From positions 7,430 to 71,429 of the forward strand of contig CANROB010000005.1 of assembly GCA_947632115.1 (NCBI GenBank): a stretch of 64,000 bases of DNA. Direction: 5' to 3'. Positions 721-54,577 of the stretch are shown here, piece by piece. Both the position numbers and the translations under genes were made by a program. The stretch comes from an uncultured Bacilli bacterium. GTDB lineage: Bacteria; Bacillota_I; Bacilli_A; RF39; UBA660. Positions within the stretch are counted from its first letter, which is position 1. Every line of letters starts with the position of its first letter. The notes below the pieces were generated by a model. The model worked only from the letters and a program-made list of their open reading frames with translations. It had not been told where the DNA came from and ran no database searches.

Positions 721-750
721 AAAAAAAGACAACGTTGACTAGACGTTGTC
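721..750 (-). terminator. Intrinsic terminator closing the candidate ncRNA
   Basis: GACAACGT-7nt-ACGTTGTC hairpin followed by a T7 run on the minus strand. Confidence 0.85.
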
Positions 751-1029
751 CCAGTTTGAATTAGCTTCTTTTTTAGTCTTAAAAGAAACTACTTATCCAG
801 GGTCGCTTTCCCCATATAGCTATATACTTAATAGATGATAAGATCCTTCATCAGGATATCCATATATGTAGTCCTAATTTTTGTTATTCCTACATAAGGT
901 GGGCGTTATGCATTATTATCGTAATACATAATTAGAGATATTTTCTTCTTACTCATTTTGGTGGATGATTCCGAAAAATCATTTTCCTCATTTATAATGG
1001 AGAATATCAATTGCCCCTTCTATTAAGTA
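721..1029 (-). ncRNA. Candidate stand-alone structured non-coding RNA (~300 nt), family unassigned
   Basis: No long ORF; own promoter and terminator; 11-bp long-range helix (1019-1029 with 825-835) plus several nested hairpins including a UUCG tetraloop; three of four non-Watson-Crick positions are G-U on the minus strand. Confidence 0.7.
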
Positions 1030-1034
1030 ATTTA

Positions 1035-1063
1035 AATGTAACACATTTTTCATGTTTTTGCAA
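1035..1063 (-). promoter_or_regulatory. SigA-type promoter for the candidate ncRNA
   Basis: TTGCAA-17 nt-TACATT with extended -10 TG; predicted start ~1028 coincides with the 5' arm of the closing helix. Confidence 0.65.
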
Positions 1064-3019: not shown

Positions 3020-3676
3020 TTATTTCCGGTACTGTCTCATAATAGAACGATACTTAGATTTATAATTAGACTTCAGTCTAGAGTAACTATGACTACTTCT
3101 TTGATAAGCAAAAAAATCATACGTTCCCTCTTTTTTAACATTAATACCAATAATAAAATCATAGATATTGTGATTTAAATCTTGATAGACACAAAGGATA
3201 CAGTGTCTCTCAGGAACAATCTCATCATTTTCCTTACTTACTAAAATACAAGTTTGAAAAGATTTTTCCGTATCCTTAGAAATATCAAAAGTAGTAAACC
3301 GTTTTTGATTTAAAGATTCTGATCTTTCTTGTACTCCTAAAACGGGTTTTGCTGTTTTTAAATTATATAATTTAATGTTACTAGCAACCCCATAACCGAT
3401 ATTATTAAGCGTTAAAGAAAGCATAATATTATCGTCATTTTTACTATCTAAAACAGCCTCATTACTATCTTTTTTTAAGAAACGATTTCCCCGAATAATA
3501 AAGTAATAAACGAATCTGTCAATGACATTTATTTTCTTAATTTCCCCTAGGACTAAATAGGGCTTATGTTCCTCCCGATTTTCATTTTTAATACGAATAT
3601 GTCCGGTATAAATAGTTGCAAATACAGGGATTAAAATCGTTGCCATGGTTAGAGCTAAATTCAAATAATCATTCAT
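3020..3676 (-). CDS. Hypothetical protein with N-terminal transmembrane helix and beta-rich domain
   Basis: 218-aa ORF with hydrophobic N-terminus; terminator-like AACTAGG-T-TCCTAGTT downstream. Confidence 0.7.
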   Translation of the reverse strand: MNDYLNLALTMATILIPVFATIYTGHIRIKNENREEHKPYLVLGEIKKINVIDRFVYYFIIRGNRFLKKDSNEAVLDSKNDDNIMLSLTLNNIGYGVASNIKLYNLKTAKPVLGVQERSESLNQKRFTTFDISKDTEKSFQTCILVSKENDEIVPERHCILCVYQDLNHNIYDFIIGINVKKEGTYDFFAYQRSSHSYSRLKSNYKSKYRSIMRQYRK

Positions 3677-4721: not shown

Positions 4722-4731
4722 AACCTTACGC

Positions 4732-4763
4732 TCCTTCCGCCATGACTAAAATAAGTCATAGAT
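4732..4763 (-). promoter_or_regulatory. Hairpin in rpmE leader, possible L31 autoregulatory leader
   Basis: ATGACT-TATTTT-AGTCAT hairpin immediately 5' of the AAGGAG SD. Confidence 0.35.
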
Positions 4764-54447: not shown

Positions 54448-54476
54448 TTGCATTTTTTTATAAAATAAGCTATATT
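54448..54476 (+). promoter_or_regulatory. SigA promoter of SRP RNA
   Basis: TTGCAT-17-TATATT. Confidence 0.6.
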
Positions 54477-54483
54477 ATGTAGT

Positions 54484-54556
54484 AGCACAACACCCACACT
54501 CGAACCAGGTCAGGACCGGAAGGTAGCATCCTTAAGAGCCTCTGAGTGTGTGTGCT
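54484..54556 (+). ncRNA. ffs: Small-type signal recognition particle RNA (4.5S-like, ~73 nt)
   Basis: CCAGGTCAGGACCGGAAGGTAGCATCC helix-8 motif with GGAA tetraloop; closing stems AGCACA/TGTGCT and CACACTC/GAGTGTG; T run after; near tadA-dnaX. Confidence 0.88.
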
Positions 54557-54561
54557 TTTTT

Positions 54562-54577
54562 TGTTTCACGTGAAACA
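54562..54577. promoter_or_regulatory. parS site (perfect palindrome)
   Basis: TGTTTCACGTGAAACA. Confidence 0.92.

Follow-up and report, generated by a model that had tools for sequence, protein, structure and literature searches.

We analysed a 64,000-nucleotide (nt) stretch of DNA from an uncultured Bacilli bacterium (contig CANROB010000005.1, positions 7,430 to 71,429; hereafter the window), whose genome comprises 1.45 Mb in 46 contigs, and in particular a region in which a first reading of the sequence, hereafter the original prediction, had placed an orphan, possibly undescribed structured non-coding RNA (ncRNA) of about 300 nt. The RNA lies on the minus strand, with coordinates descending from 5' to 3' (1029 to 721), between the stop codon of an open reading frame (ORF) of 606 amino acids (aa) for a TypA/BipA-like protein (1103-2923) and the start of a long ORF at 654. 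A direct reading of the minus strand located the promoter, the terminator and the helices where they had been predicted. The parts of the RNA are listed below, where MFE stands for the minimum free energy fold and PGK for a motif of the Rfam database, RF03040, to which the RNA is compared in a later section.

1035-1063, minus: promoter, with -35 box TTGCAA (1063-1058), 17-nt spacer and TACATT (1040-1035); extended -10 element TGT-TACATT (1043-1035)
1019-1029, minus: 5' strand of helix P1, UACUUAAUAGA, complementary to 835-825 over all 11 bp; the RNA is predicted to start at about 1029-1027
843-1018, minus: variable 5' multi-helix domain (MFE)
1018-1013 with 904-901, minus: helix P2, AGGGGC with GCCC (MFE)
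within 843-1018, minus: P3 arm, including AUGAUUU-UUCG-GAAUCAU (MFE)
930-907, minus: P4 hairpin (MFE), 90% paired in the genus, with compensatory changes
within 843-1018, minus: P4a hairpin, UAUGUAG/CUACAUA (MFE)
857-843, minus: P5 hairpin, AUCCU-GAUGA-AGGAU (MFE), 80% paired in the genus, with compensatory changes
837-842, minus: 5' strand of Hb, CUUAUC, a pseudoknot helix crossing P1; pairs with 797-792
825-835, minus: 3' strand of P1, UCUAUUAAGUA; pairs with 1029-1019
813-826, minus: self-complementary stretch UAUAUAGCUAUAUG with the 10-nt core UAUAGCUAUA (824-815); proposed homodimer interface
799-813, minus: Hc hairpin, GGGG-AAAGCGA-CCCU, its loop rich in purines; most relatives and the PGK RNAs have GAGAAAGAAAACUC
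792-797, minus: 3' strand of Hb, GAUAAG; pairs with 842-837
762-791, minus: Hd hairpin, UAGUUUCUUUU / AAAAGAAGCUA, with the conserved loop AAGACUAA (780-773)
753-761, minus: conserved single strand AUUCAAACU, with AAACU identical in 12 of 12 members of the genus
721-752, minus: intrinsic terminator, with stem 750-744/734-728, conserved loop UCUAGUCAA (743-735) and U-tract (727-721)

A stand-alone RNA gene

The stretch 1029-721 has its own promoter and terminator, holds no conserved ORF, is clamped by helix P1, contains the pseudoknot helix Hb and stands alone among its neighbours. Folding of a 316-nt stretch gave an MFE of -75.7 kcal/mol, compared with -57.3 +/- 5.1 kcal/mol for dinucleotide shuffles (z = -3.63; none of the 100 shuffles was as stable), and the hairpins named in the original prediction are all present in this fold. 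The terminator was the only one found by a scan of positions 500-1300 (scan span 752-726; one found against 0.3 expected). The promoter of the window was not listed by our consensus scan, as it matches the consensus at eight of 12 positions by count and the threshold was nine. In 34 of 36 homologues, the 5' strand of P1 is preceded at a distance of 5-7 nt by a TTGnnn-17-TGnTAnAnT box (placed by hand in L035); the two without it are L062 and L074, the latter of which is cut by a contig end. The folding score and this box bear out the predicted structured ncRNA, of about 310 nt, with a promoter and a terminator of its own. The downstream gene likewise has, as predicted, its own promoter-like sequence, TTTACA-17-TATAAT at 713-685, which matches the consensus at 11 of 12 positions, and a TTTACA box follows the terminator in other members of the genus too.

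A DNA search recovered the region in genomes of the same genus only, and in none of 21 genomes outside it. A covariance model of the 3' 145 nt of the RNA, termed R1, detected RNAs of this type (hereafter R1 type) in 12 of the 20 genomes of the window's own genus (g1; G000-G019, of which G000 is the window's genome and one of the 12), and in five further genera of the 150 sampled from the same family. A pattern search of species genomes returned 42 loci, comprising 33 R1 matches (85-164 bits) and nine chance matches in coding DNA, and the same pattern returned 29 loci with 15 members in metagenomes. The order typA, RNA, homologue of the downstream 634-aa ORF is kept in all 12 genomes of the genus that carry the R1 type, and these flanks were found in this genus only. 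Seven loci from other genera are followed by a 4'-phosphopantetheinyl transferase gene (ACPS; PF01648) in convergent orientation, an S15-peptidase-like gene lies nearby in nine loci, and a PTA_PTB gene in five. As the neighbours vary between genera, the RNA is better regarded as stand-alone than as a leader, in line with the original prediction.

A discrete transcript of about 300 nt had been proposed as a check. In one metatranscriptome run, a single 257-nt contig covers only 752-1008 at about 98% identity and has no loose ends, and neither typA nor the downstream gene is covered by this run; the lone contig fits an abundant, discrete RNA, which we take as a weak hint from a single run. Run X6 covered only parts of a relative at 90-95% identity and run X8 gave no mapped contig, and we drew no conclusion from either.

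That the region encodes a divergent universal RNA (6S, RNase P, tmRNA or signal recognition particle (SRP) RNA) or a small protein is very improbable. The original prediction had dismissed tmRNA and RNase P and left a divergent 6S RNA open, and two ORFs of 31 and 34 codons do lie on the RNA strand (988-1083 and 906-1010). However, these ORFs have TTG starts, and no ORF is conserved in 34 homologues, in which the longest ones (10-55 codons) differ in place, frame and length. Each universal RNA was located elsewhere. RNase P type B scored 297.6 bits, 6S RNA 75.3 bits and tmRNA 141.9 bits, all three on further contigs of the same genome, and a bacterial small SRP RNA lies in the window at 54474-54572 (plus strand, 54.9 bits). 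Thus, the dismissal of tmRNA and RNase P holds, and the 6S option is closed by the bona fide 6S RNA on another contig. Like 6S RNA (RF00013), this small RNA is of the stand-alone, abundant type and has a promoter and a terminator to itself, but 6S RNA is a rod with a central bubble whereas the fold here has branches and a pseudoknot, and no match to RF00013 was obtained in 600-1200 at E<=10. At the gathering level, the Rfam scan of the whole window reported only the SRP RNA and an L31-Firmicutes ribosomal-protein leader at 4731-4761 (minus strand, 34.7 bits), and a permissive scan of 600-1200 (E<=10) returned only noise, namely ceN61, CRISPR-DR6, OxyS and HLE at 15-19 bits.

A cis-regulatory leader or riboswitch, in which a ligand or a protein would decide whether the terminator forms and thereby control the downstream gene, also appears improbable, though less so. 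Rfam assigns RF03040 to the type Cis-reg, the RNA ends in an intrinsic terminator with a conserved loop, and a gene identified by eye as phosphoglycerate kinase-like follows one PGK-type RNA (L104) at a distance of about 250 nt, the UUAUCAG hairpin of this RNA lacking a U-tract. However, in the window the terminator is followed by the separate 11/12 promoter of the next gene, and the TTTACA box recurs after the terminator in further genus members. Furthermore, the downstream gene varies between genera and is convergent in seven loci, the genes that follow 14 PGK-type RNAs are mutually unrelated, and a full terminator ends 21 of 23 PGK-type RNAs. We noticed no alternative anti-terminator pairing, though no systematic search for one was made.

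Conserved fold and pseudoknotted core

Covariation in relatives had been named as a further check, and the helices do covary, in 12 homologues from the same genus and 20 from other genera. As a control, the partners of each pair were slid along the alignment. In the full-length alignment of the 12 genus sequences (A1, made with MAFFT), 85.0% of cells are paired, compared with 38-49% when slid, and 38 of 82 pairs are changed on both sides, with P1 paired in 99%, P4 in 90%, Hc in 100%, Hd in 87% and the terminator in 98% of cells. P2, P3, P3b and P4a are paired in just 57-68% of cells in this alignment, and the low pairing of these variable 5'-domain helices is partly misalignment. The alignment of the 3' domain within the genus (A2) reaches 90.9%, compared with 37-54% when slid, with 20 of 35 pairs changed on both sides. 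For the 20 compact-class sequences from other genera (A5), the values are 95.5% and 31-52%, with 29 of 60 pairs changed on both sides and P2 to P5 paired in 86-100%. The 11-bp complementarity between the 5' strand 1029-1019 and 835-825 is perfect in the window, as predicted, and P1 is 92.3% paired in A5 with two compensatory pairs, one of them AU in 13 sequences and GC in seven, and the next AU, UG, CG or GC. Among the helices of the 3' domain, Hc is 100% paired with two of four pairs compensatory, Hd has seven of 11 compensatory pairs and loop bases GACU that are invariant in the genus, and the terminator stem has seven of eight.

The 5' domain measures 160-220 nt in the window's genus and 90-125 nt in most other genera, in which the whole RNA takes a compact form of 231-266 nt; the expanded 5' domain was found in the window's genus and in L038 and L032. 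The P3 helix of the compact class (A5 columns 41-68), as seen by eye, is a long AU-rich arm with a conserved 2x2 internal loop, CU opposite UU, beside which two covarying pairs (A-U/G-C and C-G/U-A, uncounted) close a variable tetraloop. We rejected two further candidate features. A helix GCUAU/AUAAGC proposed by RNAalifold is never changed on both sides and breaks in L028, L030 and L031. A hammerhead-like self-cleaving element was suggested by CUGAUGA in the 857-843 hairpin, but this motif is unconserved, relatives having CUGAUUA, CUGAAUA or CUGAAAA.

The pseudoknot helix Hb joins CUUAUC (842-837) to GAUAAG (797-792). Its pairing in A5 is 100%, with three of its six pairs changed on both sides, and its innermost pair (837:797) is CG in five, UA in four and UG in three members of the genus. 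P1 and Hb form a pseudoknot because the 5' strand of Hb lies inside P1 and its 3' strand outside. The strand 842-825 thus serves two partners in turn, first 797-792 and, one base further on, the 5' end of the RNA. Hb is also the outer helix of the Rfam PGK model. The two-domain picture of the original prediction therefore needs amending, as the domains are tied to each other by the pseudoknot helix 842-837/797-792. This helix had been missed, as had the self-complementary stretch and the complementary loops of Hd and the terminator.

The loop GACUA of Hd (778-774) is complementary to the terminator loop UAGUC (741-737). The R1 type has 29 distinct loop pairs, in which the longest Watson-Crick run measures 3 bp ten times, 4 bp nine times, 5 bp nine times and 6 bp once, so that a complement of at least 4 bp occurs in 19 of 29, compared with 20% of shuffles. 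In the PGK type, the Hd loop is CUGAUAA in all 23 RNAs, and UUAUCAG follows downstream in 22 of them, in 21 of which it lies in a hairpin with a U-tract. A kissing contact between the Hd loop and the terminator loop is best supported because both loops differ together between the two RNA types, and we infer from these sequences that the two loops may kiss.

Relation to the PGK motif

The PGK model has 92 positions and a gathering cut-off of 50.8 bits. The motif is attributed to a survey of 224 candidates by Weinberg et al. in 2017. On the window the model scores 19.4 bits (E = 3.2 in a 121-nt search), which is not significant, with Hb and Hc correctly aligned; it was not listed at E<=10 over 601 nt of the window, and it had no match in the whole genome (G000) at E<=0.01 or E<=0.1. 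Scores were higher for relatives, namely 39.7 bits (E = 0.0024) and 34.5 bits at two sister-genus loci (L053 and L055) and 30.5-31.7 bits for three members of the genus. In the reverse direction, the R1 model reached at best 25.0 bits (E = 0.0066) on PGK loci, with nine of 20 loci at E<=1. PGK RNAs above the cut-off occur in 15 of 151 genomes in the sample of the family and in 23 of 151 in that of the order.

The elements of the Rfam model can be compared one by one. The outer helix (CUuauC/GauaAG, around about 23 unpaired nt and a second hairpin) is aligned at 842-837/797-792, and it covaries. The second hairpin, GAGAAAGaAAACUC in the model, is aligned to GGGGAAAGCGACCC(U) in the window, which has the same stem position and an A-rich loop with three loop letters different, and a GAAAGAAAAC-type Hc loop is present in eight of 12 genus members and in 20 of 20 compact-class members. 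The loop of the third hairpin, ACUGAUAAUA, is absent from the window, where the loop is AAGACUAA, and the model aligns just four of the seven pairs of this hairpin. Neither does the window RNA hold the cis-regulatory position of the Rfam entry, as it has its own terminator, a separate promoter follows, and its neighbours are unconserved between genera.

Outside the Rfam model, the full layout of the PGK-type RNAs runs in the order sigma-70-type promoter, P1 5' strand, palindrome, GAGAAAGAAAACUC hairpin, Hb closing strand, CUGAUAA-loop hairpin, one or more further hairpins, AAACUAG, and UUAUCAG terminator. Their 5' strand, xGCUUAG or UACUUAGA, pairs with CUAAGx just upstream of the self-complementary stretch. 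An automatic search for P1 in these RNAs was noisy in the AU-rich flanks, and we read the helix by eye where the promoter was evident (L104, L105, L106, L108, L109, L110, L112, L115, L117, L118 and L127-L130). The 92-nt entry RF03040 thus appears, from the sequences of L104-L130 (for instance L110:1400-1700), to be the core of a larger RNA of 250-400 nt. Only one of 14 PGK-type RNAs lies upstream of a phosphoglycerate-kinase-like gene, the kinase being recognised by eye. Tandem pairs of PGK-type RNAs about 360-520 nt apart were seen at G158:C33:325-417 with 681-774 and at G116:C16:1073-1164 with 1589-1678, and the second tandem copies L113b and L123b have degraded palindromes.

The window RNA and the PGK RNAs share their bacterial family, the outer helix CUUAUC/GAUAAG round an unpaired stretch and a third hairpin, and the hairpin before the third resembles the GAGAAAGAAAACUC type of the PGK RNAs in its position and A-rich loop. 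Beyond the model they share the promoter, P1 (xCUUAG/CUAAGx in the PGK type and ACUUAAUA/UAUUAAGU in the window type), the palindrome, AAACUAG and the complementary terminator loop. They differ in the loop pair, CUGAUAA/UUAUCAG as opposed to GACUA/UAGUC in the window type, and in the palindrome, ACAAUUGU as opposed to AUAGCUAU or AUGAUCAU. The window RNA further differs in its Hc loop AAAGCGA, in having no extra hairpin between Hd and the terminator, and in its locus. Although Rfam labels the PGK motif as cis-regulatory, both types point to stand-alone RNAs here. Judged by sequence and predicted fold, the RNA and the PGK-motif RNAs are sisters that have diverged, both at home in one family of small-genome gut Bacilli. 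It is thus not fully orphan, and the label undescribed in the original prediction is not supported either, since its conserved 3' core is a diverged form of RF03040; the significant Rfam hit that was to remove its novelty according to that prediction was, formally, not obtained.

The distribution of the two types is uneven. In the window's genus, the R1 type occurs in 12 of 20 genomes, the PGK type above the cut-off in six, and both together in none; of the remaining two, G006 has only a 31.9-bit PGK match, and G004, which is 79% complete, has neither type. The PGK-type RNAs of this genus have no tblastn matches to typA or the 634-aa protein in their loci (four of four), and are thus not positional orthologues of the window RNA. 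In another genus (g138), the genomes G156, G247 and G252 carry both types, and because some genomes hold both, the two types are separate genes of one superfamily, which coexist in g138 and seem to replace each other in the window's genus. The two copies of G156 have the palindromes AUGAUCAU and ACAAUUGU and the loop pairs GACU/GUC and CUGAUAA/UUAUCAG, respectively. A copy in G161 (L031/L062) has a 3' domain scoring 94.3 bits, no recognisable promoter or P1 5' strand, and the stop codon of an upstream membrane-protein gene about 100 nt away; it may be truncated or co-transcribed.

A literature search returned no paper with 'PGK RNA motif', 'PGK motif RNA' or 'RF03040', none pairing 'structured noncoding RNA' with 'Anaeroplasma', and no description of the window RNA or of a full-length PGK-type RNA, the supplement of Weinberg et al., which may note flanking features, lying outside this search. 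'PGK' is absent from the main texts of Weinberg et al. (PMC5737381) and of Kretsch et al. (2025; PMC12286853). The RNA belongs to a known kind, that of bioinformatic candidates, and what is new here is the larger, revised architecture and the dimer hypothesis set out below.

The self-complementary stretch and a proposed homodimer

The self-complementary stretch, or palindrome, is 10-14 nt long and begins directly 3' of P1 (826-813 in the window). It occurs in the versions AUAGCUAU, AUGAUCAU, AUGGCCAU, AUAAUUAU, ACGAUCGU and GUGAUCAU (with one G-U pair), and as AUACGUAU in L032, and its centre switches among AGCU, GAUC, GGCC, AAUU, CGAUCG and ACGU (AAUU in L038 and ACGU in L032). It is self-complementary in 33 of 33 members found by pattern in genomes, in 15 of 15 metagenome members, and in L001, L010 and L032, compared with none of the nine chance matches in genomes and, if G-U pairs are allowed, two of 14 metagenome non-members. 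In the alignment used for the pairing and covariation test (A4), 224 of 224 cells are paired, with 11-68% in slid controls, and none of 500 shuffles reached the observed pairing or covariation score. The collecting pattern had fixed the three outer pairs and left the central 8 nt free, so that the free test concerns the inner four pairs only, of which three are changed on both sides (53:58, UA in 26 and CG in six; 54:57, GC in 21 and AU in 11; 55:56, AU in 21 and GC in 11). In the PGK type, the corresponding site is self-complementary over 10 nt or more in 19 of 23 RNAs, in most of them with ACAAUUGU as its basis and otherwise with AUGAUAUGUCAU, AAUGAUAUCGUU or AUUUGUAUACGAAU.

The pairing of the palindrome with itself is impossible within one chain because its two central bases are adjacent, and adjacent bases of one chain cannot pair; we therefore read the palindrome as a homodimer interface. 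Among the cases described by Kretsch et al. (2025; PMC12286853), bridge B3 of OLE and bridge B8 of GOLLD show the same covariation of adjacent nucleotides, switching among GGCC, GAUC and AGCU; that adjacent bases of one chain cannot pair is argued there too, and the intermolecular bridges were matched to cryo-EM maps. A homodimer is proposed because the covariation at the centre here parallels the argument made for these two bridges. Palindromic base-pairing is also among the dimer motifs described in a 2026 review (PMC12990946), whose examples include HYER1 and HYER5, which dimerise partly in this way, relatives without the palindrome staying monomers. Isolated 14-mers are predicted to pair with a second copy of themselves at -9.4 to -18.1 kcal/mol, whereas their own hairpins, at 0 to -1 kcal/mol, are not stable. 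With RNAcofold, the palindrome is the sole intermolecular contact in four of five full-length RNAs, the fifth (L070) swapping further helices between chains, and the dimer is predicted to be favoured over two monomers by a ddG of -6.4 to -14.6 kcal/mol.

A monomeric stand-alone RNA, with the palindrome serving as a small intramolecular hairpin or as a binding site for a protein, or being an AU-rich chance feature kept by descent, is in our view rather unlikely, though likelier than a leader, a universal RNA or a coding sequence. It draws on the fair frequency of 10-12-nt palindromes in shuffled AU-rich segments, on the weak palindromes of four of 23 PGK-type copies, on the invariance of the palindrome within the genus, and on the P4 arms of the compact class, which are identical to halves of the palindrome and allow an alternative intramolecular pairing to be drawn. 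However, every centre is self-complementary (AGCU, GAUC, GGCC, AAUU and ACGU, and AAUU, AUAU and UAUA in the PGK type), which would be needless in a tetraloop; ViennaRNA gives no stable monomer hairpin for four of five 14-mers; G-U pairs speak against a symmetric DNA site; the pairing with P4 breaks in the L056 group; and the competing RNAalifold helix GCUAU/AUAAGC breaks in L028, L030 and L031. A symmetric DNA operator is disfavoured both by the G-U pairs and by the covariation of the centre. As for the P4 arms, UCAUAU/AUAUGA in compact-class members (for example L033:3044-3061 and 3106-3117) matches the palindrome AUAUGAUCAUAU half by half. Neither the L056 nor the L070 group keeps this match, the L056 group having the palindrome AUACGAUCGUAU while P4 is unchanged, and the match probably represents no conserved alternative pairing; we rejected a pairing of P4 arms with palindrome halves on the break in the L056 group.

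Weighing these points, we hold that the best explanation of the whole, with a probability of about 0.6, is a stand-alone, PGK-sister RNA of about 309 nt with a pseudoknotted core, which would form a homodimer through the palindrome and carry a pair of kissing loops. Several observations weigh against it. P1 and the palindrome are invariant within the genus and thus show no covariation there, and P1 overlaps the two outermost positions of the palindrome. The three outer pairs were fixed by the search pattern, and the sequences are related, amounting to about nine distinct versions, not 33. AU-rich palindromes of such length are fairly common by chance: shuffles of the PGK-type segments reach the observed length in 0.2-25% of cases for the 19 RNAs with at least 10 nt and in 28-79% for the four shorter ones (L114, L113b, L123b and L124), whose palindromes measure 6-8 nt. 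The loop complement is only GAC/GUC in ten of 29 R1-type loop pairs, and the mutual exclusion of the two types seen in the window's genus fails in g138. Finally, the evidence for expression is one assembled contig from one RNA library, in which DNA carry-over is possible.

In the proposed mechanism, the 11-bp P1 would clamp the 5' end of the RNA onto 835-825, Hb would cross P1 as a pseudoknot, and Hc, Hd and the terminator hairpin would complete the conserved 3' core, with the Hd loop GACUA kissing the terminator loop UAGUC. The palindrome strand 3' of P1 would pair with the same strand of a second molecule to give a symmetric homodimer, whose intermolecular duplex could, by inferred geometry, be sandwiched in one stack between the P1 helices of both chains, close to their 5' ends. 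Of the exposed elements, the purine-rich Hc loop is the most conserved (AAAGCGA in the window, AAAGAAAA in relatives and in RNAs of the PGK type), and it may bind a partner or make a tertiary contact. The RNA would not regulate its flanking genes in cis, and our guess is that the dimer acts in trans, as a scaffold or a decoy. More tentatively still, and with some doubt on our part, the R1 and PGK RNAs might constitute one unrecognised class (235-400 nt) of symmetric homodimers, with a palindromic duplex stacked on P1, a lock made of the pseudoknot and the kissing loops, and palindromes and loops that are orthogonal in co-resident paralogues so that only homodimers form. If this is true, the 92-nt 'cis-regulatory' PGK entry of Rfam would be the core of a trans-acting RNA particle.

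Compared with known systems, the RNA resembles OLE, GOLLD and ROOL, as far as these are described in the sources cited, in the proposed symmetric pairing of one segment between two chains, in the covariation of adjacent central bases, and in putative kissing loops as architectural elements. It differs from them in length (235-360 nt as opposed to about 580-830 nt), in showing no sequence or Rfam similarity, in carrying the palindrome on a linear strand beside the 5'-closing helix rather than in a hairpin loop, and in that the oligomer is proposed from sequence comparison. With HYER1, a group II-derived ribozyme, and ARRPOF, it would share, on what the sources say of these two, the homodimeric state of a medium-sized natural RNA, but folds and contexts are unrelated, no catalytic role is indicated here, and ARRPOF had no match in the Rfam scans.

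These results add a well-supported structured RNA, which Rfam 15 misses, to the repertoire of reduced-genome gut bacteria (0.8-1.8 Mb). They also suggest that the PGK family is annotated too short in Rfam, and that its type is probably wrong; the promoter, the 5'-closing helix, the pseudoknot and the structured terminator of both types can be used for a revised seed alignment. The covariation of the palindrome makes the RNA a small, tractable candidate for a natural homodimer, with 235-310 nt per chain, earlier cryo-EM cases being much larger. A genus whose members carry either type (12 and six of 20), together with one whose members carry both with different palindromes, offers a system for studying how paralogues avoid cross-pairing.

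As regards the setting of the RNA, the long downstream ORF encodes 634 aa in the genome contig (window 1-654 on the minus strand and on to G000:C5:6179-8083). Its product has an acidic stretch and matches no Pfam family at E<=0.1, which leaves no functional hint, and the ORF is kept directly downstream of the RNA in the genus at 24-53% identity. It is followed by parA and parB-like genes. The records of the genomes that carry the RNA are labelled as metagenome-assembled genomes of uncultured Bacilli, Mollicutes, Mycoplasmatota, Tenericutes and Erysipelotrichaceae, and the isolate and contig labels of the carriers point to rabbit, goat, cattle rumen and mouse.

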